Positions 30,144 to 48,240 are shown, counted from the first letter of the stretch. The stretch is DNA of 64,000 bases from Ignavibacteriota bacterium (GCA_963787835.1 CAWBEI010000002.1:1600001-1664000), one strand, 5' to 3'. The notes: generated by a model from the sequence alone, not told the origin. A program made the numbers and translations.

Positions 30144-30560
30144 TTGGAATTTGTAATAATTTTGCTTGGTGGAACAATGAATATTAGATGAGGGGTTGCA
30201 ATTCTGGTCGATTGTTGTGGATTAAATCATTATTATTTCGCAACAGGGGCTGAACTTATCTTGCTTTCAGGGCATTTGCGTTAATGAATTCATGCTACCT
30301 TTGGTTGTGTGTTTCGTGGATAAAAGAAGTTTCAGCATTTGGTTCGGTCAGTTTACGATCAGCGCACGCGTGAAGGGTCATGCGAAAAGCGCCGAGCGCA
30401 TCGCCCACGATGCTCGTTTGCCGTCTTTGAATCGTGTTGCGTTAATGGATGAGCGATCGGCTCACGAGCGATCGTCCAGCTTTGGTTCCCGTTTCAACAT
30501 CTCGAAGCGTAACGTTTCGTTTCCATTTCTTTTTGCATGAGCGATCATGCGTGTTAACAC

Positions 30561-30935
30561 ATGAGGATATATGTAGGTGGGCTTCCGTATCAAACGGACG
30601 ATGCCCAACTGACCCAGATCTTTGCAGCCTATGGCGAAGTTGCCAGCGCAAAGGTTATTACAGATCGCGATTCCGGTCGCAGCAAAGGCTTCGGTTTCGT
30701 CGAAATGAACGACGATGCCGCAGCAAAAAAAGCTATTGACGAGCTGAACCAGGCCGAACTCGGCGGTCGAACGCTTACCGTCAACGAAGCGCGCCCAATG
30801 GAGCAGCGCGATAATCGTGGCGGCGGCGGTGGTCGTGGCGGCTACGGCGGCGGTGGTGGTCGCGGCGGCGGTGGTGGCCGTGGCGGAGACCGCGGCGGCG
30901 ATCGTGGTGGAGACCGCGGCGGGAAACGCTGGTAA
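30561..30935 (+). CDS. RRM RNA-binding protein with RGG tail
   Basis: RNP2 IYVGGL, RNP1 KGFGFVEM, VNEARP, GGRGG/GGDR tail. Confidence 0.95.
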   Translation: MRIYVGGLPYQTDDAQLTQIFAAYGEVASAKVITDRDSGRSKGFGFVEMNDDAAAKKAIDELNQAELGGRTLTVNEARPMEQRDNRGGGGGRGGYGGGGGRGGGGGRGGDRGGDRGGDRGGKRW

Positions 30936-30957
30936 AACTCCCAACGAATTGTTGAGC

Positions 30958-30993
30958 ACGAGTAACGAGTTTTTAACTCGTTACTCGTTGGCG
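30958..30993. repeat. Hairpin repeat copy 1 (14-bp stem)
   Basis: ACGAGTAACGAGTT-TTT-AACTCGTTACTCGT. Confidence 0.8.
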
Positions 30994-31038
30994 TTCGTGT
31001 AATATGAACTTCCCTGTAACAGGAGTCGTTGAACGTAC

Positions 31039-31299
31039 ATGACTTCAAGAGCCATCGAATTGACGGAAATTAAACGCGATCTCGCCAATCTCCCAGCCGA
31101 CAAACTTGCGGAGGTAAGAGAATATGTGCGAAAACTTTTACAAAAAAGCCGTCCCACTCCAAGCGATGTTGAATCGCTCGAAGGAATATGGGAAGGCCTG
31201 GGTTGGGAAAAAATTGATGATCTGGAAGGTGAGGTTCGCAAGATGAGGAAAGAAATGTCCGAAAATATTCTTAAAAAATTCGATACGTGGAATTCTTAG
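31039..31299 (+). CDS. Putative antitoxin (DUF2281-like)
   Basis: LPADKLAEVREYV..L, SLEGIW; overlaps the PIN gene. Confidence 0.75.
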   Translation: MTSRAIELTEIKRDLANLPADKLAEVREYVRKLLQKSRPTPSDVESLEGIWEGLGWEKIDDLEGEVRKMRKEMSENILKKFDTWNS

Positions 31300-31676
31300 C
31301 CGATACGGTGACGATCGTTCGCCATTTCTCTCGAATTGGACGGATTGGCCAAAAGGCGAAGCTATTACTCCAATCGGCAGATCGAGGGGAGAATAAAATT
31401 GCGGTCTCCATCATGTCGGTAACGGAGATTCTGTATCTTTCCGAGAAGCAAAGAATTCCTCTGGACCTTGCACAATTTACCGAGAAAATGTTTGCGCTGA
31501 CAAACTATCGATTAGTTGACATTGATCTTGCGGTTATTCTGGAAGCACAAAACGTTCGTGGACTCGAATTGCATGACCGGATTATCGTTTCAACTGCCCG
31601 TGTGCTCGGTGTGCCGGTGCTGACACCTGACGAGGAGATCACCGATTCCGGTTTGGTGGAGATTATTTGGAAATGA
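31287..31676 (+). CDS. vapC: VapC/PIN-domain toxin
   Basis: LADT, SVTEILYL, ELHDRIIVSTA, LTPD acidic residues. Confidence 0.88.
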   Translation: MEFLADTVTIVRHFSRIGRIGQKAKLLLQSADRGENKIAVSIMSVTEILYLSEKQRIPLDLAQFTEKMFALTNYRLVDIDLAVILEAQNVRGLELHDRIIVSTARVLGVPVLTPDEEITDSGLVEIIWK

Positions 31677-31690
31677 TTTGCCGCGATGCA

Positions 31691-31723
31691 AGTAACGAGC
31701 TTTTAGCTCGTTACTCGTTGGCG
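31691..31723. repeat. Hairpin repeat copy 2
   Basis: AGTAACGAGCT-TTT-AGCTCGTTACTCGTTGGCG; 31/33 identical to 30961-30993. Confidence 0.8.
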
Positions 31724-31785
31724 ATTGAGCTTTTTAGCTGTGCATCTTTCCTGTAAACTCTGGGTTTGTAAGTGAGAGTATTATT

Positions 31786-32757
31786 ATGAAAAGACTCTTT
31801 GTGCTTCTCCTTTTTCTCCTGGTGCCGCTTGCACCCATTGGTGCGCAAGGGTTGCATGGGAAGATTTTGGTCTTTCGTGATTCGACGAGTTTTTCTGCTG
31901 CCTATAATTTCCTGCATTTACTCCCGAGCATCTATTCTGGCGAAGTTGACTCAGAGTCCATATTGCCGAGCGATTTGGACGGTTATGATGCGGTCTTTCT
32001 TTTCCCCGGATATCGAAGTGTTGCCCCTGATACGCTTACACACAGTAATGCATTGAGCCTCATTTCATACTTACGAAGTGGAGGCAAACTTTATGCTGAG
32101 AGCGGCTCCTTCCTAAGCAATAATTCATCAACCGATTCTCTTTCAGCCGACACTTTGTGGCATTATTTGGGGGTGGAATTAGAACTGTATCAGCAGACTG
32201 AGGTTTGGTTCGACAGTGTATATGGAGTTGATTCAGAATTTACTCGTGGGATCGAAGTTTCGTGGGTTCACTCGGATCCGCTTCAATTTGATTCGCCTGA
32301 TGTGTATGAAGCTGGAGGTAGCGTAATTCCGGTTCTCTATGTGTATGAAGGCAATGATGGTATTAGCGATGCGATTGGTTGGATTCCTTCCGACACCTCC
32401 ACTCATGCCGTGCTTTACCATCCAGCCGGGGAAGGTTACAATCTATTTTTCACTCGCGTCCTTTGCGATTACTTTGGCCTGTGCGTGGATGCGGTGAAGG
32501 AGACACCTCCAGCAATACCAACAGTCACGCTGCGAGTTGTGAATGATGGCTTTAGTACCAGTTGTATTATATCTGTTGATGAGACTGGCACCCTCGATAT
32601 AGCGAATGCGCTTGGCATTACGGTATTTCACGCTTCGGTCAATTCAGGCACGAGCCAAATTGAATTGCCGGAGACGCTTCGGAATGGCGTTTATTTCGTG
32701 CGGCTGCAAACGGGGCATGGCGGACAAGTGCAGCCGTTTGCGTTCGTTGCGAAATGA
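31786..32757 (+). CDS. Secreted protein with T9SS type A C-terminal domain
   Basis: Signal IGA-Q; LDIANALG...LRNGVYFVRL. Confidence 0.75.
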   Translation: MKRLFVLLLFLLVPLAPIGAQGLHGKILVFRDSTSFSAAYNFLHLLPSIYSGEVDSESILPSDLDGYDAVFLFPGYRSVAPDTLTHSNALSLISYLRSGGKLYAESGSFLSNNSSTDSLSADTLWHYLGVELELYQQTEVWFDSVYGVDSEFTRGIEVSWVHSDPLQFDSPDVYEAGGSVIPVLYVYEGNDGISDAIGWIPSDTSTHAVLYHPAGEGYNLFFTRVLCDYFGLCVDAVKETPPAIPTVTLRVVNDGFSTSCIISVDETGTLDIANALGITVFHASVNSGTSQIELPETLRNGVYFVRLQTGHGGQVQPFAFVAK

Positions 32758-32787
32758 TTCACCGCACTCCCTGCGTTTGAATCCTCG

Positions 32788-33678
32788 ATGAGATCTTTTT
32801 CGATTCCGTTCGCAATTTTGCTGTTTGCCGCGATTGGCATGTCCGGCTGCAAGGACGTTGGTTTCCGCGAGATCGATGTTTCGGCAAAGAGCCGTGCTTC
32901 GGTGCAGACGGCGCGGGATGTCATGGCGCAAATTCAGCAGGGGTTGCATTATTTCTACGAGTCGAAGCACCGTTATCCGGAAACGACGGAAGCGTATCTG
33001 TACGACTCCATTCGCAATTACATTCCCAATCAGATCGACCCGATCGACCTCTATCGCAACGATAACGGCAAGGGATATTTTATTGCGGTCGGTGCGCGTT
33101 CGGAGAAGATTGTTTATCGCTACCCTCCGACGATCGGGATTGGCGATTACACGCTCTACTGGGTTGGCCAGAACGGCGTAGATGAAGAAGGCGAGGGCGA
33201 TGACGTCGATGCGTGGCAGCCATCGGACACGGCCCGTCATTTCGAACGCCAGCGCCGTTTCGATCTGCAGAATGATGGCGTTGCCGATCAAATGCACCTC
33301 ATTCGTACCGGTCCGGATATCGATCGCGATTCGGTAGTATTCGAGATCACGCGGCATGATTCGCTGAAATATCGTGAGGAATGGCCGCTTTCCGAATATT
33401 TCAAAGACCGTCCTGAACTTAACAGCGATGAACGAAAACGACTCATCCGCTCGGAACTCGATCGCTTTTTCACCCCGGGCGCTTTTACACACACCGATTC
33501 CCTGACCTATCGTGCGTGGCCGCATTGGGGCGAAGTGCAGCCTGACTCGCCGGAGATGACGGAACTCGTTCGTTCGGGCGAAACCATGTTCAATTTCTAT
33601 GAAGGCGCTCGTGGCTCGAAGGGAATTGCATGGCTGCCTTCGGATAAGAAATTTGTAGTAGTATGGAATATTAAGTAA
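32788..33678 (+). CDS. Lipoprotein with GspG-like globular domain plus unknown C-terminal domain
   Basis: Lipobox MSGC; LHYFY...RYP...VYRYP...DYTLYWVGQNGVDEEGEGDDV. Confidence 0.6.
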   Translation: MRSFSIPFAILLFAAIGMSGCKDVGFREIDVSAKSRASVQTARDVMAQIQQGLHYFYESKHRYPETTEAYLYDSIRNYIPNQIDPIDLYRNDNGKGYFIAVGARSEKIVYRYPPTIGIGDYTLYWVGQNGVDEEGEGDDVDAWQPSDTARHFERQRRFDLQNDGVADQMHLIRTGPDIDRDSVVFEITRHDSLKYREEWPLSEYFKDRPELNSDERKRLIRSELDRFFTPGAFTHTDSLTYRAWPHWGEVQPDSPEMTELVRSGETMFNFYEGARGSKGIAWLPSDKKFVVVWNIK

Positions 33679-33775
33679 GAAGTAAGAGGTAATAAGTAAG
33701 AGGTATGAAGCATGAAAAATTTGGGATCGGTTGTATAATTTTCCTCTCTTACTTCTTACTTCTTACTTCTTACTT
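33673..33775. repeat. Inverted heptamer arrays (AAGTAAG)n ... (CTTACTT)4
   Basis: Six degenerate AAGTAAG units at 33673-33714 and four perfect CTTACTT units at 33748-33775. Confidence 0.85.
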
Positions 33776-34367
33776 CTCACCCTCCATGCGTGCGCAGCAG
33801 AGATCTGCCACCGATTCGCTTCGCGCACCCGCTCACTATATTGATTCCCTCCTCAAGCTCGATTCCATAGACCGAGCATTACAGCTTGCAGAAGAACGCC
33901 GCTTTCAGCGAACAAAACAACTCGCGACGCAGCGTGTACTCGATCTTACCGGCGATAGCATTCCAGAAGTATTGCGTCTGGAAGGATATGTGAAAGGGAA
34001 GGTGGACGATACAAGGCTGACCTTCACCATTAAATCAAAGGGTAAGACGCTGTTCGAGGATTCCTGGCTTGCAGGCGGTTATTTCGATACCGCCGATCAT
34101 TTGCCGGACAGTATCAAACTAAAGCGATTGCGAACCATCGTGACCGTCTTTTTCGCGAATGAAAATTTTGAAGTGGTGGATTCGAATGAATTCGATACGA
34201 TCTTGAAGCAAGTTGCAGAAGCCGATGTGCATCCGCATTCTTTCGAAGCATCCGAGATCTTTCGTGAGCCTCGTGTGATGTATAGCGTGTATCATAGCCG
34301 CGATTATTGGTACGGCCTGGTTTGGGATCCGAAGAACAATAAGTTTGTGAAGGCATGGAGGAATTAA
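33705..34367 (+). CDS. Exported hypothetical protein, paralogous to C-terminal domain of upstream lipoprotein
   Basis: DLTGDSIPEVLRL / GLVWDPKNNKFVKAW versus DLQNDGVADQMHL / GIAWLPSDKKFVVVW. Confidence 0.7.
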   Translation: MKHEKFGIGCIIFLSYFLLLTSYFSPSMRAQQRSATDSLRAPAHYIDSLLKLDSIDRALQLAEERRFQRTKQLATQRVLDLTGDSIPEVLRLEGYVKGKVDDTRLTFTIKSKGKTLFEDSWLAGGYFDTADHLPDSIKLKRLRTIVTVFFANENFEVVDSNEFDTILKQVAEADVHPHSFEASEIFREPRVMYSVYHSRDYWYGLVWDPKNNKFVKAWRN

Positions 34368-34369
34368 AT

Positions 34370-35086
34370 ATGAACGCTCGTAGGGACGTGCTGCGCACGT
34401 CCTCTTCGTCTGTCCCACGGCTGAAGGGGAAGGACGTGCACGGCACGTCCCTACGACTACGGCGTTTTCCTCGCACATTCTTTCGCCAAACCAGCACCCT
34501 TGTTGCGAAGGAAATTCTTGGCGCGTACTTGCATCGTGTATTGGATGGCGAAGAACTCATTGGTAAGATCGTCGAGACAGAAGCCTATTGCGTGGGTGAT
34601 GAGGCATGTCACGCCTTTCGTGGTACGACCCCGCGTAATGCGGTAATGTTCGGGGAGGGAGGGTTTTCCTATGTTTATTTCACCTATGGAATGCACCATT
34701 GCTTTAATATCACGGCGAACGAAGAAGGTGTTGCCGAGGCTGTTCTTGTTCGGGCCATCAAGCCGGTGAAAGGCATCGAAACGATGAGGGTATTGCGCTC
34801 CAAGGCAATTCGGGATCGGGATCTTACGAATGGACCGGGTAAGCTATGTCAGGCAATGTCGCTTTCACGAACGGAGAACGGAATCGACTTGGTCGAAAGT
34901 GACGAACTCTTTCTTACTCGTGGGGAGAGCCACACTCCGGCGAATCTTATAGGAGTTTCCACCCGTATAGGCATCAATGTCGCTCAGGATCGACTTTGGA
35001 GATATTATATAACAGGGAATGAATATGTTTCACGCACCAAGCCGTCTGTATCGGGTACCGTGGCTGGCCCTCGTCGTCGTAAGTAG
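34370..35086 (+). CDS. mpg: DNA-3-methyladenine glycosylase (AAG/Mpg family)
   Basis: GKIVETEAY, YVYFTYGMH, AVLVRAI, NGPGKLCQA, RIGI; start uncertain. Confidence 0.93.
   Translation: MNARRDVLRTSSSSVPRLKGKDVHGTSLRLRRFPRTFFRQTSTLVAKEILGAYLHRVLDGEELIGKIVETEAYCVGDEACHAFRGTTPRNAVMFGEGGFSYVYFTYGMHHCFNITANEEGVAEAVLVRAIKPVKGIETMRVLRSKAIRDRDLTNGPGKLCQAMSLSRTENGIDLVESDELFLTRGESHTPANLIGVSTRIGINVAQDRLWRYYITGNEYVSRTKPSVSGTVAGPRRRK
34380..34454. repeat. GTAG-type REP doublet (REPIN-like)
   Basis: GTAG-GGACGTG-ctgcg-CACGTCC ... GGACGTG-cacgg-CACGTCC-CTAC. Confidence 0.8.
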
Positions 35087-36197
35087 CTTGTGTATCACAT
35101 CATGCGGAAAGGGACAGAACGTGCCGAACGCATCGCCGACGATGCTGGATAAATTCCCGCCCGAGCGGGCTGCGCTTGCGAAAGAGATCGAAGATGTCGG
35201 CGGTCAGCACATTCACATGCCGCCGCTTCCGCAGGCGTATTCAGCGGATCGGTATCTCGGCGTTACTCCCGAATTTCTTCGTGATTCGCTGAAGGGAAAA
35301 GTTGTTCTTATCGACATTTGGGATTACACCTGTATCAACTGTATTCAAACGCTTCCTTATATCAAAGCATGGAACGACCGCTATAAGGACAAAGGCCTGG
35401 TGATCATCGGCGTTCATTCTCCGGAATTTGATTTTGAGAAAGATCCCAAGAACCTGGATAGTGCCGTGAAAGAATTCGGGCTCGATTATCCGGTCATTGC
35501 CGACAATGATTATGAGATATGGAACTCTCTTTCGAACCAGTACTGGCCGGCGAAATATTTGTTCGACAAAAATGGGATTCTTCGCGCCGAGCACTTTGGC
35601 GAAGGGGATTATGAATCGTTCGAGGCATTCCTGCAACAGATCCTCCTGGAACGCGATAGCTCGATCGATCTGCCCCTGCCGCTTGCACCCGTCCGGGAAA
35701 CCGATAAGCCGGGATCGGTCTGTTACCGCGCCACGCCGGAAACCTACGTAGGCTTTGCCCGAAATCATCTTGGCAATAGTATGAATGATACGGACATGAT
35801 TTCGCATGAGTATCATCTTCCACACATGATGAATAAGGATCTACTGTATCTCGATGGGAAATGGACTGTCAACAGAGAATATGCTCAGCCCAGCGGGAAA
35901 TCGGATGCAAGCCTTGTTTTCGATTATCAGGCAAAAGAAGCGAACCTTGTCATTCATCCGTTGGCGGAAAGTGGGTTCAAGGTGATGGTCACACAGGATG
36001 GTAAGCCGGTTCCGAAAGCGGACCGAGGCGCGGACATTCAAGAAGCGGACGGGAAGACATTCATTAAGGTACAAAATGCACGGATGTACCGTATCACGAA
36101 TAATCAGGGCTTCGGACGGCACACACTAAAGTTGACGGCCACGACACCAAGCTTCGGCGCATACGCCTTTACATTTACGACGGCCTGCAAGCATTGA
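35019..36197 (+). CDS. DipZ-like thioredoxin lipoprotein
   Basis: Lipobox ITSC, WDYTCINC, GVHSPEFDFEK, YWPAKY, TPETY, AYAFTF. Confidence 0.88.
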   Translation: MNMFHAPSRLYRVPWLALVVVSSLCITSCGKGQNVPNASPTMLDKFPPERAALAKEIEDVGGQHIHMPPLPQAYSADRYLGVTPEFLRDSLKGKVVLIDIWDYTCINCIQTLPYIKAWNDRYKDKGLVIIGVHSPEFDFEKDPKNLDSAVKEFGLDYPVIADNDYEIWNSLSNQYWPAKYLFDKNGILRAEHFGEGDYESFEAFLQQILLERDSSIDLPLPLAPVRETDKPGSVCYRATPETYVGFARNHLGNSMNDTDMISHEYHLPHMMNKDLLYLDGKWTVNREYAQPSGKSDASLVFDYQAKEANLVIHPLAESGFKVMVTQDGKPVPKADRGADIQEADGKTFIKVQNARMYRITNNQGFGRHTLKLTATTPSFGAYAFTFTTACKH

Positions 36198-36482
36198 TCG
36201 CATTCGGCGATTTCCCCGAAACGCTTTTACTGTCCTATTGTTATACACCGCAAGGTTTCGGAAAGTCCGAAACCCTGAATGCTGCATTCAGCGCCCCACG
36301 CATCGTCGACGATGCCATCGCCCCCGATGCACATTGGTAACGATGCCGGACGCTTCGTCGCCGATGTCCTCCCATCAAACACGATGTTCACATGGTATTT
36401 GATGGATGCATCGCCCCTTGGTCGCTGAGTGTTGTTCTTCATAGATGTACCACGCATCGCCCATGATGCTTGATCGCAATCG

Positions 36483-38402
36483 ATGCCACAACTGACGCTT
36501 CTGAAACGCATCCCCCGATGGGTGGCACGCATCGCCTACGATGCGTTTTGGCCTGACTTCGACCCCATTCAGATTTTCTCCAAATCCTTTATCCGGGCGC
36601 TGGTGTTCCTCGCGATCGCCTGTACGCTCGCGCAGCCGATCTATGCCCAATCCGGCGCAGCAGATACGAGCGCCAATAAGGTGCTGAATGCCGCAAAGGA
36701 TGATATTCGTCTCGAAAATCTCACCGATCTTAATTCGACGGGCGACGATGCGACCATGTTCGTTTCCCCTGCCGATGGCTCCATCTATTTTACAAGTTCA
36801 CGATCGGGCAAGCAAATTCTTTATGTTGCAAAGCGCGTCCCTGGTGCTGACCCTAAAGATCGCTCGACTCATTGGGGTACACCGGAGGTTTTCACCGAGC
36901 TTCCGGGTATGCAGAACATCAGCTCGCTTTCCATTGCGGGGGATGGTGTTACTGCCGTGGTCGGAATGTGTAACCGCCCGGATGCGATCTTGCAGTCCTG
37001 TGATATTTATCAAGGGCAGATTATAGGTGGCAAGCTGGATAATCTTACTCCATTAGGCGCACCTATTAATTCTGAATGGTGGGATGCCCAGCCCTGCATC
37101 AGTCAGGATGGTCAATTGCTGTTCTTTGCGAGTGATCGTAAAGGCGGTCATGGCGGTGTCGATATCTATATGTGCTCCAAATCTGTCGATGGCAAATGGG
37201 GTCCGCCGGTTAATCTGAGCTTTAATACGGGTGGTAACGAGCTTTCGCCTTTTATTGCGAGCGACAATCAAACGCTGTATTTCGCCGCAGACCATCTTCC
37301 GGGCGGTATGGGCGGATACGATATTTATGTCACGCACCGCCAGGGTGAAAACGAATGGACGGAGCCCAAAAATCTCGGGCCGGCAGTGAACTCGAAGAAT
37401 AACGATCTTTTCTTTTATGTGCCGCAGAATGAGAATGCCGTCTATTTTTCAAGTGACCGTCCTGGGGGGTTAGGCGGATACGATCTGTATCGCCTGTACG
37501 TTCAACCCGCTCCTCCGAAGCCAAAATATGTGACGCTTACCGGCCGCATCCTCGATGCCGAAACGAATCAGCCCATCACATCCAAGCCAGAAATTTCGAT
37601 CTCCTTCTCGGATAGTAAGCAACCCCTTGCAAACGATGCAACGGGAGCAGCGTACAGCGTGAAAGTTCTGGCCGGAAGCCTTGTGCATGTCAGCGCTGGT
37701 GCAGAAAACTATGTTTCCAATGCCCTCGAGATCCAGGCGCCACCGACGGATGTGCCGCCGCTCCTCTCTCAGGATATTATGCTTACTCCCTCTCATGCGA
37801 GGGTATATGGACATGTGACGAATTCTTATAAGAACACACCGCTTCAAGCGACCGTAACGCTGGAACAATTAGCCGGTGGTGTACCGCCGGTTTCTGTCGA
37901 GACCGATCCGGCCACCGGAGCTTTTTCTTTCAATGTCAATCCGCTCATTTCTTACCGGATCAGCACGACAGTAAAGGATTTCGAACCGTTCGAAGACAAG
38001 ATCGATGTTCCGAGCGCTCGTGAAAAACTTATTTCCATTCAAAAGGAGATCCGGCTCACCCCTGTGGCAACACAAAACGTTGTAATCTATTTCGATGTCG
38101 ATCATTCCGACATTAAGCCGGAAGAATTAGCGAAATTTCCTGAATTTATCCGACAGGTGAAGGAAAACCCAAGCGTTCGATTCGAGATCAATGGCCATAC
38201 GGATTCAACCGGCTCCGTCGCGTATAATCAGGCTCTATCGGAGCGACGTGCGAAATCGGTGGAAGACTATTTGCTCAATCAGCAAGTGCCGCGGGAGCAG
38301 ATCGCTGTGGTGCAGGGATTTGGTAAGTCGCACCAGCTCGACCCGAACGATTTAGCGAAGAACCGACGCGTCGAAGTACGAATTGTGGGAAGGAAGGACT
38401 AA
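36483..38402 (+). CDS. PD40-repeat beta-propeller + Ig-like + OmpA peptidoglycan-binding protein (PorE-like architecture, no TPR)
   Basis: FASDRKGGHGGVDIY repeats, GHTDSTG, YNQALSERRA, NRRVE; start uncertain. Confidence 0.88.
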   Translation: MPQLTLLKRIPRWVARIAYDAFWPDFDPIQIFSKSFIRALVFLAIACTLAQPIYAQSGAADTSANKVLNAAKDDIRLENLTDLNSTGDDATMFVSPADGSIYFTSSRSGKQILYVAKRVPGADPKDRSTHWGTPEVFTELPGMQNISSLSIAGDGVTAVVGMCNRPDAILQSCDIYQGQIIGGKLDNLTPLGAPINSEWWDAQPCISQDGQLLFFASDRKGGHGGVDIYMCSKSVDGKWGPPVNLSFNTGGNELSPFIASDNQTLYFAADHLPGGMGGYDIYVTHRQGENEWTEPKNLGPAVNSKNNDLFFYVPQNENAVYFSSDRPGGLGGYDLYRLYVQPAPPKPKYVTLTGRILDAETNQPITSKPEISISFSDSKQPLANDATGAAYSVKVLAGSLVHVSAGAENYVSNALEIQAPPTDVPPLLSQDIMLTPSHARVYGHVTNSYKNTPLQATVTLEQLAGGVPPVSVETDPATGAFSFNVNPLISYRISTTVKDFEPFEDKIDVPSAREKLISIQKEIRLTPVATQNVVIYFDVDHSDIKPEELAKFPEFIRQVKENPSVRFEINGHTDSTGSVAYNQALSERRAKSVEDYLLNQQVPREQIAVVQGFGKSHQLDPNDLAKNRRVEVRIVGRKD

Positions 38403-38407
38403 CACCC

Positions 38408-39295
38408 ATGACCGAACTACACGCCATTAAAAGTTACGAAGATATGAAGATGGATCGTCGGCGAGGATTTGAAATTATAAAGCGGTTTTCCGCCCTCGCA
38501 CTCGTGTGGGGTTTCGCAATGCTGTGTTTGCCTATGGGAACCGCTCATGCTCAGCTCCTGAGCCGAGGCGATCTGTTCGGACCCGGAGCGCCGCCGCCGC
38601 TTGCCGGTATCGAGATCGGCTTTGGCCAACATTCTGAAATGGGAGCGCTCGACTGCGACTGCGGTTCCCAATTTACCGGTGGTACCGGCACGGGATTGCT
38701 TGGGTCACTCTTCTTCGAACTACCGCTTGACTATCAATGGGCAATCGGGATCAAAGCCGGGATCGACTTCAAGAATTTTTCCACTACAACCCCCTTGAAC
38801 GATGTGGTTGCTGTTCAAGTCCCAAACGTCAGCACACCGGACACCGCTGTGCTGCCGGTGACCCGAACGGCGAATGTCAAAACAACCTATCTTGACTTTG
38901 CGCCATACGTTCAGTATCAATTTTTTAGAATGGGCCCATTCGTGCAAATGGGACTTGGGTTCGGATTTCTGGCATCGAACAGCCTTACGCAGAATCGGGA
39001 ACTTGCGGAGGGTGCTTCGATCCCTGCGCAGAACGGCCATGCCGCCATTACGAACCTGACCTTTACGAATGGAACTCTTACGGAAGTAATTCAAGGTGGC
39101 GCCACAACGGTGAATTCGCTCCGGCTGGGGATTTTACTTTCAGCCGGATATAACATTCAGGTTTCCGAGCGTTCTATATTCGCGCCATTGATCACGTACG
39201 ATTTTCCGCTCACGGTGGCTGGTAATACCGGTGGCGCAAACTGGAGGATCGGCTCTTTGTATGCTTCGGCTCTTCTTAAATTTCAACTGAATTAA
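38408..39295 (+). CDS. Outer-membrane beta-barrel protein (PorT-like)
   Basis: Signal AHA-Q, YLDFAPYV, C-terminal LLKFQLN; TAATG coupling to the next gene. Confidence 0.65.
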   Translation: MTELHAIKSYEDMKMDRRRGFEIIKRFSALALVWGFAMLCLPMGTAHAQLLSRGDLFGPGAPPPLAGIEIGFGQHSEMGALDCDCGSQFTGGTGTGLLGSLFFELPLDYQWAIGIKAGIDFKNFSTTTPLNDVVAVQVPNVSTPDTAVLPVTRTANVKTTYLDFAPYVQYQFFRMGPFVQMGLGFGFLASNSLTQNRELAEGASIPAQNGHAAITNLTFTNGTLTEVIQGGATTVNSLRLGILLSAGYNIQVSERSIFAPLITYDFPLTVAGNTGGANWRIGSLYASALLKFQLN

Positions 39296-42200
39296 TGGCA
39301 TTCTCTCAACGAATGAGCACTCTCGGTCGCTGGTTGCGAGCGCCATGGGCGTGGCTTGCCCTGCTCCTGCTTTTGTGCTCTGTTCCTTTGAAAGCGCAGT
39401 CCTCGCTGACAACAAGTAATGCGTTCGTCATGGCGGACGTGTCAACTGATGGTGAGGGTTTGGTTCGGTATTTTTATGCGAATGGCCAGGGTATCAGCTT
39501 TCTCGCTGCGCGGACATCCTATCTCACCGTGCTCGTGGATACGACCTACTATACCAATAACCCGAACCTTGTTGCCACTGCCTCTCCGAAGTATCCGGTC
39601 ATGCTGCAGGGCGGCAGCACGAAGAAGATCCAGGATACGATCGAGACCGTTTGGCAGCCTAACGGAGCGACCGGTTTTGATATTGTTCAGGATATTTATC
39701 CGGTCGCGTTTCCTATTATGCAATGTGGTCAGATCGTGTTCAAGTTCAAAATTCGCAATCACGAGAGCTCAACGATCTTTGCGCAAGCGCAATATATGAT
39801 CGAACGTATGCCTCACGGAAAATGTAAATACCTCCAATGATAACGCGCCTATCACCACGCGTTATGGCTATCTCTCAACCGCCTGGACTTCCTTCCCGGG
39901 TCCCGCGGGCTCTATTCCTCCGTACTACATTGGATCGTTAGCGACCTTGACCAGCGGAAGTTTCCCAACGCTTCTTTCGATGGGTTTCAATAACGACTCA
40001 CTCGCACCCGAGCCGATGGGACTGATGCAGCCCACTCTTTTTTCGTTCGTTGATTGGAGGGAAGTTGTTACCGATTGGACGTGGAGCGGGCCAGCAGTGG
40101 GAATCCAATACCCTATGATTGGAGACGAGGCGTTGATCCTTCAATGGGGCGCGAGCAACGTGGATGCTAATGATACTGTAGAACTTGGCTGCGATAGCTA
40201 TGGCATGCCTGGTTGTACACCGATCTGCCTTAGTAATTCTGTTGATGCAATGATCATCCACCCGGATCACATCATTTGGGATCCGAATACCGGCCCATCC
40301 GGCTCGTATATCCCAAATCACTTCCCCGTTGAAGGGGTTGTTTGGAATCAATTGGCTCAGACCGCAAACAATGTTACCGGTTTGCAATCGATCACGAATG
40401 ATGCCACGGGCGCAGCCGATGGCCCTGTCAAGATCGTTTCTCCGTTGCCCGTCACCAATAATGGATATTCTCAATCCCATGTGATGGCGGCCACGCTTAA
40501 TGGTGGGTTCTCAACTTCTGTTTCGTGGGAGGATACCGTACTCGCGGGTATTCTTACCAACTGCTCTACCGACTCTCTCTATGATCTTGCGCTTGGCATT
40601 ACGGCAGGCGGCGTTGGCGGAACGAATTGCCTGAACGGAACTTATTATTGTCCGATCGAGGTGGATTGCCAGTCGAAGGATGTTAATCCGCCACGACATT
40701 CCCCCCATGTGGTGGTGGGAAATCTGAACTCCTGCAATAATCCAAAGGAGTACAGCGATTCGGTTTTCGATAACCGTTCTACCGATCTGGGCTTGCAAAG
40801 CATTACCTGGACCGTTACTCCGAATGCGAATGCTGTTAAAGTAGTGGTCGGTGCTATCACGCCTTGCACCAATGCGGAAGTTCCTATTACTGTTACCCAG
40901 CTCGACACCCTTCACGCTCCATGTGTGAATTTTACTTTTACGGACTGTGCCGGCAATGTGAGCACCGATCAGATATGCTTTGAAGCATGTCTGCCTCCGG
41001 GCCCTCTCGATACGCTTTCGCCTCGTATTAGGCTCTTGAATCGCTACGATCAGAATATTAACATTCCCTCGGATTCTGCAAATGATGTCTGTGAATATCA
41101 ATGCAGCCAATGGGTTGTTACGGATTCTGTCATCAATGGGCGCCAGCAGGATGAAGGTCTTAAGTCGATCAGTGTTGTATCGGAGACGAATATGTCGTTC
41201 AATCTTCCGAATCCGGTTACGCCTGGAGTGAAGGAAGATACGTTCAGTGTCTGTGTGATGGATTCTTTGTTTGATGGCTCGATCATTATTGGCGCGAGCG
41301 ATATCACTGGGATCAATGCGGAAACGTTCGATACGATTACGTATTGCACGGTGGTTGATACCACACCTCCTGCAGTGGTTGTTTCTACCCCGCTCGCGAA
41401 CGATTGGTTAGTCACCGTTAGCGAAACGCACCCCTGGGATCGCGGCATCGACTCGGTCTTGTTGACCTTTGTCAGTAACTGCGCACCTCAACCAAATCCG
41501 GGCGTGATAAAGCTCTTCCAACTCAATCCGACGACATGGCTTATCCTTCCCGCCGATACGTGTGCGGATACGATCAACTTCAATGTTGAGATCACCGATA
41601 CCTTCCAAAGCGCTTCCTTCTCGATCGAATCCTGGGATTGCGTTGGGAATCATACCATTCCCCATAATATCAATATTACCAAGAAGAGCGATACCTACTG
41701 CCCAACCGATTCGATCATTCACATTGGTTCTGATGAAATAGAAGTCATCTTTTCGGACGTCCATCCAGGCATTACGTACGACGAGGGACTCGACTCGATC
41801 TGGTTCTACAATGTTCACAATATTACCATGTTGTATAAGGGAATTCAGACTGCACCCCATTCCATTCATGAGCCGCTGACCGGTATGACTACTCCGAAAT
41901 TCCCCCTGCGGGACACGGTGTACTTCTTCGTAACGGACACCACCATCCATGACACCCAGCCTGCAGAAGTATGTTGGGACGCCGTCGATGGATCGACGGT
42001 CAATAGTGGAGGAACCGGAAACCCACTCTGCGCAAATCCGGTATGTTGGAGTTATACACTGGTACAGGATACCACCCCTCCCATCGTCAAGGTTGGCTAT
42101 GAGCCATGCGATTCTCTCACCATCAACGTTACCGATACCCGCACCAATGACCGCGGTATCTATCGTGTATGGGATACGCTGACCGAAAATATCCAGCCCT

Positions 42201-43207
42201 TCTCCGAAATAGATTCCGGGGCCGCATCGCTGGCATTTAATCTCCCCATTACCGACCGCACAAAGTCCGCGAGCGGGAAGTTAGTTGCTAACGACGTTTG
42301 GGGGCATCAGTCAAGCGATCCCAGCACACAGGCGCAGCATACCGATACGGTCGGCATCGATGTCTATCGCCAGGATATGGCCATGATCGCCAGCGGGATC
42401 GTCAAGACCACCTCCAGCGTGACGTTTAACGTTCCCGTCTATCTCGATTCCACGGACGCGTTCCCGCTCAGCCAAAAGAATATCACGCAGTTCCAATTCA
42501 GCTTCCACATTACTTCATCGTCGGCGATGAATGGAAGCAATTTCCTCAAGTTTGTGGGCACGGCCAATGCACCGGCCATGCCCGCCGGATGGACCATCAC
42601 CCCGGCCCCGGGAACGGCTCCCGGCGCCGGACCTGATTACACCATTACCGGAACGAGCGCTGCGCCGCTCGGGAACCTCGACGCCCATGACACCATGCTC
42701 TATCTCGTCTTCTCCGGAAGCGAAACGCCCGATGTCGAGGAGGCGCAGATCGTCGTCGATCAGGATGCCTGTGGCGATGAACTCTCCTACAATGCCGGTA
42801 CACCAACCACCCTCGCAACGCCGAACTACAGCGTAACCCTCCCCGCGCCTGCCGGGCTGCTCACCGGCGGTACCATCCTCTTCATGGATTCCTGTGCTAC
42901 CATCGTCGGAAATAACCCGCACCCGACCATCCTGTCGCTCGCACCCGCCATTCCCAATCCGTTCTCCGGTTCTACCGTCGTGCAGTACACGGTTCCAAAC
43001 CAACTGCCCGCATCGCCGACGATGCTTGTACGACTGGAACTCTATAACGCGTTGGGACAAAAGATCAAGACCCTCGCCAACGAAACCGATAACCAGGGCA
43101 CCTATCAGGTTGTCATGGATGGCAGCACCCTCCAGGCTGGTACCTACTTCCTCCGGCTGCAAGCTGATGGCCAGGTTTGTTCACAAACCCTTATTCTCAA
43201 GCATTGA
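39295..43207 (+). CDS. Large Cys-rich T9SS cargo (tandem Ig-like repeats, cohesin-like domain, CTD); +1 frameshift near 39803
   Basis: Deleting one A gives QYMIDVCLTENVNTSNDNAPITTRYG... in frame with 39947-43207; CTD PNPF...YNALG...GTYFLRL. Confidence 0.82.
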
Positions 43208-43291
43208 GTACCGAGTAATGAGGTGTTAGAGCCGCACCGCATCATGGGTGATGCGTGCATCGCCGAAAGCATCCGCATCGCTGCTCGGTAC

Positions 43292-45004
43292 TCACCTTCG
43301 TTTTCCCGCAATGATAACGCCCGTCTCTTGTTTCAAGGATTGAGCGGGACTTTGGGAAGTAATTTGTACCAGTACACTATAAAGACCTGGCGGAAGGATT
43401 TGCCCATTATCTCGCTTCCCATCGAACGTCAGTGCAGATGCTCCAAGAACCGGAGTAGCATTCGCCAACGTGCGAACTATTCGTCCGTGTGCATCATAGA
43501 TACGCACTTGCATGGTCCATGAGGCGCTGGTACCCGTTTGTACGGTGAGAGTGCTGACGTCCTCGAAGCCATCGCCATCTGGCGAGAATGGATTCGGAGA
43601 AAAGCTTGCGTTGAAAACGGTTCCAATTGACGGTGTCACGATGGTGTCAGAGGTATTGACGGAGTTTTTAGCAAGGGGTGTTGCGCTATCGAGCGAGGCT
43701 TGCCAATTCTGAGGATCGTTGCTTTCCCCGCGGGGATCTTTGCGTTCTAAAGAAATTCCAACGAAGCTCTTTTTTAATAGGCTCTGCTGCCAGGTTTTAT
43801 AATAGTGCACTGAGTCGATCGAGGATGAATCGCGATTGTGCAAAACAACAAAGCACGAATCATTACCCAGATCGAGCGAGGAAGTTCCAAGTTGCGTGAT
43901 GCCGGTTCGGCCAGTAAGTGCAGGATAGGTTGTGTAAATGGAGTCATTAGCAGTAACAATACCGAACGAATCCGGGGCGATCATGAGTAATGGAACAGTA
44001 TGCGAATATTCACCGGGTTTTGATTCGCCCGTGATGAGCCGAGTAGAATCCAGTGAGATCCATTTGTCAGAAAGATTATAGACTTCAAACCATTCACAAC
44101 TACTCACTAACGGATCGAACATGATCTCGTTGATGACAACGCTATCCATTGGGATAGGCACCATGACGGTGCTTCGTAATGTATCATTTGCAGGATTCAC
44201 ATCTAAAGAATCCTGAATGTAAAGCGTGACCGGGAATAAGCCATAAAAATTATCAGGGAGCGGGATAGATACAACCAGCGAATGATTGCTCGGTAGATCG
44301 ATCGTCAGCTCTTGAAGCATTGGTGCAAATGTGCCAATTTGCATGATCAGCGAAGTATGCGTAACCGTATCCAGCCCCACATTTGCAATGGTAACTGAAA
44401 GAGAAGTATTCGAGGTGAAGGCACTCGTGAGCGCCAGATCGTAAGCTCGTTTCCGTACGGAATTTGGGCGTAGGATGGTCGAGCCGCTCGGATCTTTGCA
44501 CGCACTCCAGTTCGTTGAATCATATCCAAGGACGTAGGGATCTATTCGCTCGATGGAAATGCCATCCGATTTGATCCATTTCCCACTATACCATGCGCTG
44601 TCAATAAGATTTCCAAGAGGATCATGCAGCGAGATCGTGGAGCCGGTATTGTTCAGGTCCGGTAGGCTGAGGCGGATAATTCGCTCGATGTCCACATCAC
44701 GGATGGCAGCAAGTTCGGTATCATTACTCGAAAGGACGACTAGCGAATCGGGAGGGATGGTGGTATTCGTGTTGGGTACCATAACGGGGGTGTGACCCTT
44801 AACGGTGAGTACCCATCCGGCAATATTAATGGTGTCGGGGGTAGTATTCAGCAGCTCGATCCACTCCGGTTCTGGGCTTACCGGCGCGAACATGATCTCA
44901 TTAATGACGACACTCGAAACCGCTCCAAGGCTCTTCGTTTGTGCAGAAGCTATTTCCGGTATAAGGAATACAATGATAAGGATGAAAGCGAATTTTGGAG
45001 TCAT
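43292..45004 (-). CDS. Two lamin-tail domains + FlgD-Ig/gliding-motility C-terminal domain
   Basis: VINEIMFAP..EWIEL and VINEIMFDP..EWFEV; PNPFSPDGDGFED. Confidence 0.85.
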   Translation of the reverse strand: MTPKFAFILIIVFLIPEIASAQTKSLGAVSSVVINEIMFAPVSPEPEWIELLNTTPDTINIAGWVLTVKGHTPVMVPNTNTTIPPDSLVVLSSNDTELAAIRDVDIERIIRLSLPDLNNTGSTISLHDPLGNLIDSAWYSGKWIKSDGISIERIDPYVLGYDSTNWSACKDPSGSTILRPNSVRKRAYDLALTSAFTSNTSLSVTIANVGLDTVTHTSLIMQIGTFAPMLQELTIDLPSNHSLVVSIPLPDNFYGLFPVTLYIQDSLDVNPANDTLRSTVMVPIPMDSVVINEIMFDPLVSSCEWFEVYNLSDKWISLDSTRLITGESKPGEYSHTVPLLMIAPDSFGIVTANDSIYTTYPALTGRTGITQLGTSSLDLGNDSCFVVLHNRDSSSIDSVHYYKTWQQSLLKKSFVGISLERKDPRGESNDPQNWQASLDSATPLAKNSVNTSDTIVTPSIGTVFNASFSPNPFSPDGDGFEDVSTLTVQTGTSASWTMQVRIYDAHGRIVRTLANATPVLGASALTFDGKRDNGQILPPGLYSVLVQITSQSPAQSLKQETGVIIAGKRR

Positions 45005-45240
45005 GATGTAAGGGACTTTAAGACCGTCTGGTGGTCTTGAGAAGATTATTTCTCTACAAAGTTCGTGATTATTTTTCGCCAAACGGTGAAAAAGCCGATT
45101 TTAAAGTCTTTCGACAACGCCGCATCATGGGTGAGGCGCGCATGGTCCGCATCATGGTTGATGCTGCATCGCCCACGATGCTCACGATGCACAACGAGCC
45201 GGTAGGAACGGAGGCTGTTGCGGCGTGTTAAGAGCATACA

Positions 45241-46701
45241 ATGCCAGAAATAGAACTTGAAATAGCGCCACCTTCATCGCCCACAGCATCGTCGGCGATG
45301 CGGATGAAAGCCCGGTTACATCAGCCAAAGCAAGCATCGCCCACGATGCGCGTATCTATTGTGACGTTGGGATGCGAGAAGAACACGGTGGATTCGGAGG
45401 TGATCGGCGGGATGCTCTCGCGTCGGAATATAGCGCTCGCCAGTTCGCCAGAGGAGGCGGATACGGTAATCATCAATACGTGCGGGTTTATCGATCACGC
45501 AAAAAAGGAATCGATCTCTACGATCTTGGAGGCGATCGAACTGAAGAAACAAGGCGTGATCGGTACGCTGTATGTAGCGGGCTGTCTTTCGGAACGTTAC
45601 CGCTCGGAACTTCAAGCGGAGATGCCCGAGGTCGATCGTTTTTTCGGTACGCAGGATTTTGAAGAAATCTTGCATGAAGTCATTCCGGAAAGCATCGCCG
45701 AGGATGCTGGATCTTTCGATTTAAAGTATCATTTGCTTGATGAGCGATTAGTATCGGACCATAGACATTTTGCTTATTTAAAAATATCCGAAGGGTGCGA
45801 CCATCCGTGCTCGTTCTGCGCGATCCCGATCATGCGTGGGGGACATCGTTCCCGTGCGATAGATGAGCTGGAGTTCGAAACGATGATGCTTGGCAGTAAT
45901 GGCGCGAAGGAGATCGTGCTGATCGCGCAGGACTCGACGAATTACGGACTTGACTTGTACGGTGAGCGATCCATAGCGAAATTAGTTACACGTTTGGCGC
46001 GCATTCCGAGCATCGCATGGATCCGTTTGATGTATGCATATCCAGCTCAGTTCCCGTTCGATCTGCTGGATGTGATGGGCAATGAGGAGAAAGTGGTGCC
46101 GTATCTGGACATTCCGGTGCAGCATGCCTCGACGGCGGTGCTGAAATCGATGCGGCGTGGCATCACGCGCCGCGCAACGGAGGAACTAATTGCCACTATT
46201 CGAGAGCGGGTTCCAGGCATTGCGCTACGGACGACGCTTATCACCGGCTACCCCGCGGAAGGCGATCGGGAATTTGAGGAACTCGAAGAATTTGTCGAGC
46301 AGATGCAGTTTGACCGGCTCGGTGTTTTTACGTACAGTCAGGAGGATGGGACGACGGCGCACCCGCTCGGCGATCCCATTCCACAGGCTGAAAAGTTTGC
46401 CCGCCAAGCCAGACTATATGATATCCAGGCGGAAGTTTCGCGTTCGAAGAATCTCGCAAAAATTGGATCGGTCGAGAAGGTGCTGATCGAACGCATGGAA
46501 GTTGAAGACGGCAGAGAGTATTACTACGGCCGCACATCATCGCACGCGCCGGAAGTGGATGGGGAAATCCGTGTAACAGTTCCGGATACAATGGGCGATA
46601 GCACGAATACCCTGCTTGGCAGTTTTGTTCACGCGCGCATTATGGGCATCGGTGAAGAAGATGGATCCAGCGATTTCGAGCTTCAAGCGGAATTAGTTTG
46701 A
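45241..46701 (+). CDS. rimO: Ribosomal protein S12 methylthiotransferase
   Basis: LGCEKNTVDSE, NTCGFI, KISEGCDHPCSFC, APEVDG (TRAM domain). Confidence 0.96.
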   Translation: MPEIELEIAPPSSPTASSAMRMKARLHQPKQASPTMRVSIVTLGCEKNTVDSEVIGGMLSRRNIALASSPEEADTVIINTCGFIDHAKKESISTILEAIELKKQGVIGTLYVAGCLSERYRSELQAEMPEVDRFFGTQDFEEILHEVIPESIAEDAGSFDLKYHLLDERLVSDHRHFAYLKISEGCDHPCSFCAIPIMRGGHRSRAIDELEFETMMLGSNGAKEIVLIAQDSTNYGLDLYGERSIAKLVTRLARIPSIAWIRLMYAYPAQFPFDLLDVMGNEEKVVPYLDIPVQHASTAVLKSMRRGITRRATEELIATIRERVPGIALRTTLITGYPAEGDREFEELEEFVEQMQFDRLGVFTYSQEDGTTAHPLGDPIPQAEKFARQARLYDIQAEVSRSKNLAKIGSVEKVLIERMEVEDGREYYYGRTSSHAPEVDGEIRVTVPDTMGDSTNTLLGSFVHARIMGIGEEDGSSDFELQAELV

Positions 46702-46704
46702 CCG

Positions 46705-48240
46705 ATGATGAAAGGCCTTTTTTGCTTTTCGCTCTGCAGTCTTGCATTCATCCTCTGTGATGGGAGTACGTTTGTGAAGGCCCAGCGCAGGATGCCTTCA
46801 GAAGCACGCAGGCATGAGATCGAGGCGAAAGGTCCACGCGCGATGTTTGATCTGGTCGCATTTAAAGGTTCCAACTCCGATAGCACCCGAATGGATCTTT
46901 ATGTCGCACTTCCATATTCGTCCCTTGATTTTTCCTATGCCATCGATAAATATGTTGCCGATTACGCGGTTGGTGTTGTTGTAATCAACAAAGAACGAGA
47001 GCTTCTCAACCGATACGAACCCTATAATGTGCTTGAAACGACGACCGATCATCAAGCCCGTCTTCAGCGTGGCAGGGGACAAGCGGATGCCGAACAGATC
47101 TCATTCATGATGAGTCCTGGTGAGGACTATGAGTTGCGCCTTAGCGTCCGCGATCTCACCTCGCGGCGTGAGTTCGACACCATCGTTCTGTTCCATGTTA
47201 AGAATTTTTCTGGCGCCGCGCCCGGAATGAGCGATCTCCTGCTTTACCGAGAGAGAAGAGGGATGCGTATCGTTCCGTCTATTGGGCCGGATGTTTCGAG
47301 CATCATTGAGGATGCGGGCGAAGCACACATCGCCGACGATGCCCGCATCGCCGACGATGCTAATGCTGGTCTATTCGCTGAGCTATACAATCTTCCCGCT
47401 GATTCCACACTCGGGATAGTTACAGAAATCATTCAAAATAGATCCGAGGAGAACCCCGGTCAGCCAATAGTAGCAAGTCATACCACCTCCATTCTTCGAA
47501 CCTCACATTCTGGCGGTTCCGGATTTACAGCATCGCCCACGATGCTTGCTCCGGCTTCAGTCTCCGAGACTCCATTATTTGTCCCTCTTGAATTTAGTGA
47601 GTTGTGGATGGGCCGTTATACTATCCACACATTCATTCTTCCTTCCGTGAAAGATACAAATTTGACTGATCCATCCTCGTTGCAAAAAGAGGCGCTGACG
47701 TATGCCACACGCAGCATCCGTGTTCGCATCGCAAGAGGAATTCCATTCGCGGAGGCTGATCTCGATCAAGCGATCGATCAATTACATATCATAGCAAGCG
47801 GTGCTGAATGGGACTCACTCTCGAATGCGAAGACTACCAAGGACAAGCGGCAAGCGATCATGGAATTCTGGAATCGCAAAACTTCTGAAGCCGATCGCGT
47901 GTCGATCTTACATTCCACCAATAATCAAGGCCCCTCAAACCGTCCGATGGACGTCTTCTATGCAAGAGTGGATTATGCAAATACACATTTTGGGAATGAA
48001 CATACGTTATCATCGAGATCACAACAGGGATGGAAAACCGACCGTGGTCGCGTCTATATTGCTCTGGGCCCACCAGACTTTATCGATAGCCATCCCGATG
48101 AGACACTACAAAAGCCGTATGAAATATGGCAGTACTCTTCGCTCAATGTTCGATATACGTTTGTCGACGAATATATGCTCGGCGAGTACTACCTGAGGGG
48201 TGCTGCTCCTCCGCAAGGTACATTCATTTGGGACAAATAA
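46705..48240 (+). CDS. GWxTD-domain protein
   Basis: GWKTDRGRVYIALGPPD, YEIWQY; signal peptide. Confidence 0.92.
   Translation: MMKGLFCFSLCSLAFILCDGSTFVKAQRRMPSEARRHEIEAKGPRAMFDLVAFKGSNSDSTRMDLYVALPYSSLDFSYAIDKYVADYAVGVVVINKERELLNRYEPYNVLETTTDHQARLQRGRGQADAEQISFMMSPGEDYELRLSVRDLTSRREFDTIVLFHVKNFSGAAPGMSDLLLYRERRGMRIVPSIGPDVSSIIEDAGEAHIADDARIADDANAGLFAELYNLPADSTLGIVTEIIQNRSEENPGQPIVASHTTSILRTSHSGGSGFTASPTMLAPASVSETPLFVPLEFSELWMGRYTIHTFILPSVKDTNLTDPSSLQKEALTYATRSIRVRIARGIPFAEADLDQAIDQLHIIASGAEWDSLSNAKTTKDKRQAIMEFWNRKTSEADRVSILHSTNNQGPSNRPMDVFYARVDYANTHFGNEHTLSSRSQQGWKTDRGRVYIALGPPDFIDSHPDETLQKPYEIWQYSSLNVRYTFVDEYMLGEYYLRGAAPPQGTFIWDK

Follow-up and report, generated by a model that had tools for sequence, protein, structure and literature searches.

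An 18-base hairpin behind a palindrome cluster in an Ignavibacteriota genome: evidence for insertion and candidates for its mover

A 64,000-nucleotide stretch of an Ignavibacteriota bacterium (GCA_963787835.1, CAWBEI010000002.1:1600001-1664000; hereafter the window, G000:C2:1600001-1664000 in our numbering, where G000 is the source genome and other G numbers are relatives) carries a dense cluster of the 16-bp palindrome GCATC-N6-GATGC. The question raised by this locus is whether such a cluster is a set of chromosome segregation or organisation sites of the parS, ram or matS kind, or the trace of a locally spreading hairpin element resembling a very small repetitive extragenic palindrome (REP). 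The original prediction, made from the sequence of the window, offered both options, and the insertion evidence described below supports the second. The palindrome very probably forms the centre of an 18-base hairpin without any gene, copies of which were inserted whole at numerous unrelated sites within one genus.

Insertion of an 18-base hairpin

The window contains 15 exact GCATC-N6-GATGC matches, all between positions 30398 and 47545, against a mean of 0.15 and a maximum of 2 in 100 dinucleotide shuffles. The full stem, GCATCG-N4-CGATGC, is present in 10 exact copies (at 30398, 35130, 36300, 36529, 43010, 45166, 45286, 45334, 47345 and 47530), and the remaining five core copies are located at 36454, 43239, 45149, 45692 and 47300. 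These are the counts and coordinates originally given, and an exact-core scan also agrees that 1-30 kb and 48-64 kb of the window contain zero copies. Allowing up to three mismatches to seven family variants yielded 26 window sites (25 within 30.3-47.6 kb), as compared to 2 in the reversed control. Public contigs from four sequencing runs of one study reproduced stretches spanning several hairpin copies with 0-1 differing letters; these runs may include the source sample, and they exclude an artefact of this assembly and nothing more.

Comparison of the window with Rfam gave no match, promoter and terminator scans remained at the shuffle level (25 versus 21.7 and 25 versus 18.7, respectively), and one of the 15 copies was terminator-like. 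A type IIB restriction site (CGA-N6-TGC) was rejected, as only the few copies with an ACTA loop fit it.

We consider the copies to be insertions because they correspond to a net gain of 18 bp and to six-codon gaps against orthologues. Alignments with orthologues revealed such gaps in four window genes. The thioredoxin-like protein reads VPNASPTMLDKF where its orthologue has VPN------DKF, and the GWxTD protein reads GFTASPTMLAPAS where its orthologue has GFT------APAS; corresponding six-codon gaps are found for RimO and for a type IX secretion system (T9SS) cargo protein, and relatives carry copies elsewhere in these same genes. The six extra residues read, for example, ASPTML or IADDA. At the nucleotide level, 90 sites were fetched from G009, G014 and G006; for 44 of them, an alignment to G000 spanning the two flanks was obtained. 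A net +18 bp was observed at 18 of these 44 sites (16 distinct ones, two rows being duplicates), six sites were filled in both genomes, and the rest were mostly longer hairpin-carrying host repeats or poorly resolved.

The cleanest junctions define the unit as N-GCATCG-loop-CGATGC-N, with C-GCATCG-loop-CGATGC-T as its usual form: the C...T ends occur in 50 of the 90 copies of G000 and in 127 of the 231 pooled copies outside the ends of Y1 elements (considered below), often followed by T and then G. Comparisons within G000 point in the same direction. For 27 of its 90 copies, an alternative centre is present between identical flanks elsewhere in the genome, and filled and empty pairs were found in at least seven unrelated hairpin-repeat families. 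Inside such hairpin repeats, the unit replaces 0-3 target bases, often a GAA triloop. Altogether, 28 of the 90 copies lie inside other multi-copy repeats, compared to 4.3% of random positions, and tandem hairpin runs with a 17-18-bp period are also present.

Direct duplications of 1 and 2 bp at the G000 copies showed no excess over shuffles (12 versus 18.7 and 6 versus 5.2), and the junctions are clean and blunt, unlike the target-site duplication of a miniature inverted-repeat element of a DDE transposon. Uptake sequences and HIP1-type motifs arise by substitution without a change in length and are spread evenly in hundreds to thousands of copies; the net +18 bp change and the 90 clumped copies do not fit this class. 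Two observations weigh against the overall reading: 3-bp direct duplications are slightly above the shuffles (6 versus 1.4), partly owing to tandem copies, and the four DNA runs of one study revealed no empty allele, a result that gives no sign of present-day activity but cannot show absence.

The 18-mer folds as a DNA hairpin of 6-7 pairs (-6.2 to -7.0 kcal/mol), with a conserved CCGA, CCCA or GCGA loop over a paired stem. The sister stems GCATGA (29 copies) and GGATGA (19 copies) carry the same CCGA or GCGA loops, with 0 in the reversed controls. Across 294 contexts, positions 2/15 are paired in 285 and positions 5-6/11-12 in 288; against the weight of this covariation, it reflects approximately three master variants, not many events. 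The core is stop-free in every frame. Among the 90 sites, 54 have a homologous ORF across the site, and all 38 coding copies tested in relatives avoid the frame that reads HRRRC, being read as ASPTM/ASSAM or IADD/IVGD instead. With 20 sense and 18 antisense copies, neither strand is favoured with respect to transcription. This frame filter implies that the inserts would be translated. The original prediction had placed the constraint on the nucleic acid and not on the protein, and its first half stands: because the stem covaries and 38 of 38 copies use two of the three frames, we conclude that the DNA hairpin is conserved, while the protein also filters where copies stay.

Five tandem sister hairpins, GCATGA-GCGA-TCATGC with a 17-bp period, were observed at G000:C5:291593-291676, near a broken Y1 gene.

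Copies in the genome, the genus and the window

The cluster had been called locus-restricted, a description that holds within the window and fails for the genome: G000 contains 90 GCATC-N6-GATGC copies on five of its seven contigs, 75 of them outside the window. Only the 6-base spacer is enriched across G000, with 90 copies versus 4-17 for other spacers. The whole-genome scan nevertheless confirmed clumping, with the window cluster as the densest in G000 (15 copies in 17.2 kb; a maximum of 6 in 2000 uniform simulations). When copies less than 300 bp apart were merged, the window accounted for 7 of 75 events, a value reached in 2 of 2000 simulations, and 22 of the 90 copies have a neighbour no more than 200 bp away. 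Crude ORF calls cover 86% of the genome, and 44 of the 75 sites lie outside them.

The full stem occurs 3-107 times per genome in all 15 genomes of the genus and 0-8 times in 26 other relatives. In 400 genomes of the phylum, 12 had one copy and none had more among the matches listed. A search of a genome collection with a 19-mer version gave at least 80 matches, of which 48 belong to four assemblies that bear the titles Ignavibacteriota, Ignavibacteriae or Ca. Kapaibacterium; the others listed were one Bacteroidetes-titled chromosome and 31 matches in other, mostly GC-rich taxa, single in each genome save for one genome with two. Multi-copy carriers are restricted to one Kapabacteria-like genus of uncultured soil bacteria, and the T9SS cargo genes and the names given to multi-copy assemblies point to a host of Kapabacteria-like type in the Bacteroidota group. 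The sister hairpins are likewise almost restricted to this genus, and core and sister counts together amount to well over a thousand exact sites across its 15 genomes. Viral contigs contributed at least 120 stretches with one match apiece; the listed ones showed one tRNA and no GIY-YIG or Y1 match, and we took them as chance. No RNA run holds the motif among the sequencing runs listed.

Several individual occurrences outside the window were recorded. An intact tRNA-Leu gene is followed, one base past its 3' end, by four tandem copies with an 18-bp period (G000:C4:236697-236766). Two decayed copies lie near the N terminus of the dnaA frame (G000:C2:1019277-1019330, reading ASTTMR twice), and G006 has a copy at the matching place (L231). 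In a transketolase-like ORF of G009, the 16-mer is embedded in two longer hairpin repeats, both of them in frame (L160 and L161, G009:C9:32332 and 32812). A mosaic of repeated modules of ~220-500 bp in G011 (L511:1500-2700, contig C69) includes three with a TGGA-loop hairpin.

The copies along the window and the features that carry them are as follows.

30398..30413, + strand: intergenic copy of the core hairpin, GCATCG-CCCA-CGATGC, upstream of the gene for an RRM RNA-binding protein
30535..30550, + strand: sister hairpin GCATGA-GCGA-TCATGC; the identical site is occupied in relative G006
35129..35146, + strand: in-frame insertion of 18 nt, read ASPTML, within the N-terminal tether of the thioredoxin-like protein (ORF 35019-36197); also in G014 and, decayed, in G006, and missing from G002 and G009
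36300..36469, + strand: stack of two core copies (36300, 36454) with decayed copies (36315, 36352) in the leader of an OmpA-like gene; in relatives the leader is shorter and the copies are fewer or different
36529..36544, + strand: core copy read RIAYDA in the N-terminal region of a PD40/OmpA protein (ORF 36483-38402); a G009 copy maps to this position
42515..42530, - strand: stem variant TCATCG-CCGA-CGATGA within the T9SS cargo gene
43009..43026, + strand: in-frame insertion of 18 nt, again read ASPTML, within the C-terminal sorting domain of the T9SS cargo protein (ORF 39947-43207); the matching loop of G002 has a tandem run of decayed copies
43239..43254, - strand: variant-stem core copy between convergent genes
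45122..45181, + strand: two tandem copies with a 17-bp period (45149, 45166) and a decayed one at 45122, in the gap that separates divergent genes, upstream of rimO
45273..45308, - strand: nested insertion, in which an 18-nt unit with a reversed loop (45285-45302) splits an older TTCATCG-CCCA-CGATGAA, in the extended N terminus of RimO
45333..45350, + strand: core copy (ASPTMR) directly ahead of the UPF0004 domain of RimO
45692..45707, + strand: 18-bp in-frame insertion (SIAEDA) in the UPF0004/radical SAM linker of RimO (ORF 45241-46701); other relatives have different insertions in this linker
47300..47360, + strand: two tandem copies with an 18-bp period (47327, 47345) and a decayed one at 47300, all within a variable loop of the GWxTD protein (ORF 46705-48240)
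47529..47546, + strand: clean 18-nt in-frame insertion AGCATCG-CCCA-CGATGCT (ASPTML), whose excision restores the codons of the empty G014 allele; it folds as a 7-pair DNA hairpin of -7.0 kcal/mol

The coding copies of the window occupy variable loops, linkers between domains and N-terminal tethers. The idea that the ompA leader contains a conserved master copy was rejected: the conserved part consists of a promoter-like block and other hairpins, and the motif copies vary among species. Promoter-like blocks kept across relatives lie upstream of the OmpA-like gene (36216-36290, CGAAACG...TGTTATA) and upstream of rimO (45200-45235, GGAACGG...GTGTTA); they resemble promoters of ECF sigma factors. 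The window further contains an inverted pair of GTAG-type REPs (GTAGGGACGTGC..., 34376-34452) between a hypothetical gene and a 3-methyladenine glycosylase gene, of a family that is multi-copy in G000, as well as heptamer tandem and inverted repeats of the GTAACGA and GTAAGAA types at gene junctions (30960-30990, 31685-31720 and 33680-33775). A small ORF followed by a PIN-domain gene (31040-31676) is a likely toxin-antitoxin pair. Elsewhere in G000, a repeat containing AAGAAAAAGAAATGGCACC occurs ~34-36 times and is possibly a CRISPR array.

Candidate movers

A transposase encoded at some other locus probably copies the hairpin in the form of single-stranded DNA. Y1 (HUH) enzymes act on single-stranded hairpins. 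For group 3 TnpA-REP, PMC8266576 describes recognition of a short perfect stem and of loop bases. Our tentative first choice, ahead of enzyme-free copying and of a small GIY-YIG nuclease, is the Y1 enzyme of an IS200-like element, because the hairpin caps the end hairpin of that element, or of its gene-less copies, in 10 of the 15 genus genomes, including the low-copy G010 and G008. It adjoins a Y1 ORF in G008 (two cases), in G002 (two cases) and in G000 (C5:292645), and the junction of C, the 16-mer and TT found in free copies recurs in Y1 ends (17 of 27). Of 49 events on C2, 32 have the SCSA loop on the leading strand (p 0.044), a weak bias that fits single-strand targeting.

A number of observations weigh against this choice. 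No dedicated enzyme acting on the hairpin was found. No RAYT (REP-associated tyrosine transposase) or Y1 gene uses the hairpin as its own REP; a copy lies within 1 kb at one of the nine Y1 loci of G000, and a sister copy was present at one of 29 Y1 loci fetched from the family (the top-scoring ones only). Neither a GTAG/CGTC tag nor a guide tetranucleotide was found beside the stem, the flank profiles consisting of C before and TT(G) after it. The number of Y1 genes does not track the number of copies: G010 has 11 Y1 matches and 3 copies, and G014 has 2 matches and 80 copies. Loops at Y1 ends are mostly in the reverse orientation (TGGG in 21 of 27, versus CCGA/CCCA in 72 of 127 free copies), and the Y1-end copies may be recipients, not donors. 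Finally, the replichore bias is weak, and C4 of G006 is mixed. No RAYT gene is flanked by the hairpin, the RAYT-like genes of G000 being flanked by other GTAG repeats.

In mechanistic terms, the folded single strand would be the mobile substrate, and a nick in exposed single-stranded or hairpin DNA would serve as the entry point. New copies would favour the vicinity of existing ones, or loops and leaders that tolerate them, and such a preference would make the 17-kb stretch a hotspot in several species. A more speculative proposal, in which we place distinctly less trust, is that the 18-nt folded strand is itself a complete transposable unit, a cap that the Y1 HUH enzyme lifts from its own element end and pastes into nearby nicked single-stranded DNA.

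The end hairpin of the IS200-like Y1 element in G000 (e.g., C2:429460, 531267, 786179 and C5:292565) has one site that holds at least six different small caps, namely GCGAAGC, GCGAGCTTGCGAGC, TCCGCCGCGGCGGA, GCGCACC-ATT-GGTGCGC, CGCTTGCGGCG and the GCATC-N6-GATGC motif. Five Y1-element loci compared with Rfam gave one Acido-Lenti-1 match, away from the Y1 ORF. No common bracketed gene was found in 12 loci of relatives in which two copies lie ~0.7 kb apart.

Copying without a dedicated enzyme, by template switching or break repair at stalled forks with a nearby copy as the template, is possible, albeit doubtful. It would account for the clumping at every scale, seen down to the 22 of 90 copies with a neighbour within 200 bp, and for the 17-18-bp tandem runs, the nesting and the ragged ends that replace 0-3 target bases; genes for reverse transcriptase (RT) and Ku were not found in G000 or G009. 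What it leaves poorly explained are isolated clean +18 insertions tens of kb from other copies, at empty sites without consistent homology to the unit. The fixed loop and the C...T ends suggest recognition by a protein, and few of the many hairpins in the genome behave in this way. Capture by a retron or RT, or by non-homologous end joining, was rejected, since G000 and G009 lack RT, which is present in 6 of 14 relatives, and Ku is present in 1 of 14.

Somewhat less plausible still is a micro-insertion moved by a small GIY-YIG nuclease, either Ssn-like or lodged in a tRNA, that nicks DNA for repair to paste in the hairpin. G000 has five small GIY-YIG genes, one of them between two tRNA-Met copies, and offers an analogue within the genome, the TCCGCCGCGGCGGA palindrome, which occurs 14 times and fills the same Y1 end-hairpin site as the GCATC-N6-GATGC motif. 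The tRNA-lodged cassette layout is seen for TCCGCCGCGGCGGA at C5:66909-67328, but not for our hairpin in the contexts sampled. The latter brackets 0 of 30 small GIY-YIG loci in the family and 0 of 30 GIY-YIG loci in the genus, and no flanking tRNA fragment was found in 378 + 49 contexts, the one exception being an array next to an intact tRNA-Leu. The 87 chance half-site pairs of G000 revealed no split parent element, and G014, with its 80 copies, and G001 gave no Ssn-like match to a single query. Pattern searches with T-loop and D-loop sequences returned Y1-end copies and chance matches, with no tRNA scar in the 60 loci fetched, among the matches listed.

At the tRNA-Met locus itself (L263 and L264), a 91-aa GIY-YIG gene lies between the tRNA-Met copies, the second of which has TCCGCCGCGGCGGA in its D-loop. 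This layout recurs in G002, G006 and G437 (L265, L266 and L267), and the 14 TCCGCCGCGGCGGA copies of G000 are mostly inside other repeats.

The hotspot, the chromosome-site reading and known systems

The window locus is also enriched in relatives. Syntenic DNA of 13 relatives contains 35 family sites versus 4.8 expected from genome averages: six relatives are enriched, one has a single site, and six have none in the DNA fetched, which in several of these six covers the locus in part. Most of these sites map to new positions in the window, with approximately three matching window copies. Neighbouring 20-kb stretches have 1-4 sites, and other clumps of 6-8 occur elsewhere in those relatives. The Poisson figure for the hotspot overstates its significance, as other clumps exist and kin are not independent. 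We infer that the hotspot reflects local copying combined with tolerant targets.

It is improbable that selection keeps the hairpins as sites for a DNA- or RNA-binding protein and that the 17-kb hotspot is a functional array with turnover. Enrichment of the locus in 6 of 13 relatives at mostly non-orthologous positions, next to 20-kb neighbours with just 1-4 sites, is what such an array would give. However, 6 of the 13 relatives are without sites in the syntenic DNA fetched, G010 has four family sites genome-wide, and clumps of comparable kind occur elsewhere, with the statistical caveats given above. Many copies are decaying, and they lack a strand preference with respect to transcription.

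A parS-, ram- or matS-like set of segregation or organisation sites, the first option of the original prediction, has very little left in its favour beyond the 16-bp inverted symmetry and the local cluster. The conserved spacer lacks symmetry, the copies are insertions gained and lost from one relative to another, copy number varies 35-fold within the genus, and 75 of the 90 copies lie outside the window. Canonical parS is present near dnaA: two TTCCACGTGGAACA palindromes of the parS consensus are located at C2:990928 and 992782, 27-29 kb from dnaA (C2:1019967), and parS-type sites were found in all three relatives searched. An intact parB lies on C3, and the helix-turn-helix of its product reads DRTTVANSIRLL...GTGHAKAILG, which resembles parS-binding ParBs. 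About 0.6 Mb separates the cluster (C2:1.630-1.648 Mb) from dnaA, and the skew switch is located near 0.95 Mb, with none at the cluster; the parS/matS reading fails, since the cluster is neither close to the origin nor placed at a terminus signal. Confinement to ter as for matS was rejected, since as far as the end of C2 the skew remains positive or close to zero, and 75 copies lie elsewhere. A scan of G000 for dif-like sites gave three loose matches, none near the cluster. Inverted symmetry over 16 bp is the sole likeness to ParB/parS, the hairpin being an insertion with an asymmetric loop and no link to the origin.

Rickettsia palindromic elements (RPE) are gene-less palindromic repeats of ~150 bp, bound to one lineage and found between genes or in frame in ORFs (PMC10969869). 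Like them, our hairpin is gene-less and lineage-bound, lies in frame in unrelated ORFs, is missing from orthologues and adds a short peptide; unlike them as described there, it has 18 nt, adds six residues, inserts on either strand in two frames and nests in other repeats (PMC10969869). Coding palindromes of the RPE type have a length of ~100-150 bp and one conserved peptide, whereas the hairpin has four peptide readings.

As in REP/RAYT systems, the hairpin is short, multi-copy, lineage-restricted and mostly extragenic, and it shares with GTAG/CGTC REPs a lineage-bound, variable copy number and intragenic copies (PMC3733652, PMC8266576). Some REP families insert inside other palindromes (PMC3733652, PMC8266576). 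In contrast to REPs as characterised in these sources, the hairpin is tag-free, falls below their 20-40-bp range, has no hairpin-flanked RAYT, forms no REPIN/BIME dimers and parasitises the real GTAG/CGTC repeats of the genome (PMC3733652, PMC8266576). How REPs spread is still described as open (PMC8266576), and PMC3733652 reports no transposase found for CGTC REPs.

Yeast mitochondrial GC clusters are likewise short GC-rich palindromes without a coded enzyme that give in-frame insertion polymorphisms, merge and stack, but their terminal repeats are taken to be target duplications and their loops change fast, whereas the bacterial hairpin lacks a 2-bp duplication and has the loop as its most conserved feature (PMC8811140). 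With regard to Ssn nucleases and their NTS/SRM hairpins, G000 has NTS-like repeats flanking small GIY-YIG genes, and the hairpin inserts into such repeats; unlike NTS/SRM as presented in PMC11893778, it has no CGTCATT leader and flanks none of the GIY-YIG genes examined. A literature search found no description of the motif or of Kapabacteria palindromes, although the figures or supplements of PMC3733652, where REP families are listed, may include it.

Overall, the hairpin is an unusually small new variety of the REP/RPE/GC-cluster kind, and not a new chromosome-organisation system. Its length is close to the minimum for a mobile unit, and it ranks among the smallest mobile-looking pieces of DNA in bacteria. 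Filled and empty alleles, compensatory variants and the physical Y1 link allow a cheap oligonucleotide test of the mover. Through a stop-free, frame-filtered hairpin, proteins gain six-residue loops. If the 18-mer is indeed a complete Y1 unit, it would be a parasite of REPs and of insertion sequence ends, it would steadily supply essential proteins such as RimO, DnaA and transketolase with six-residue loops, and it would explain self-reinforcing hotspots that last across species while their individual sites turn over.

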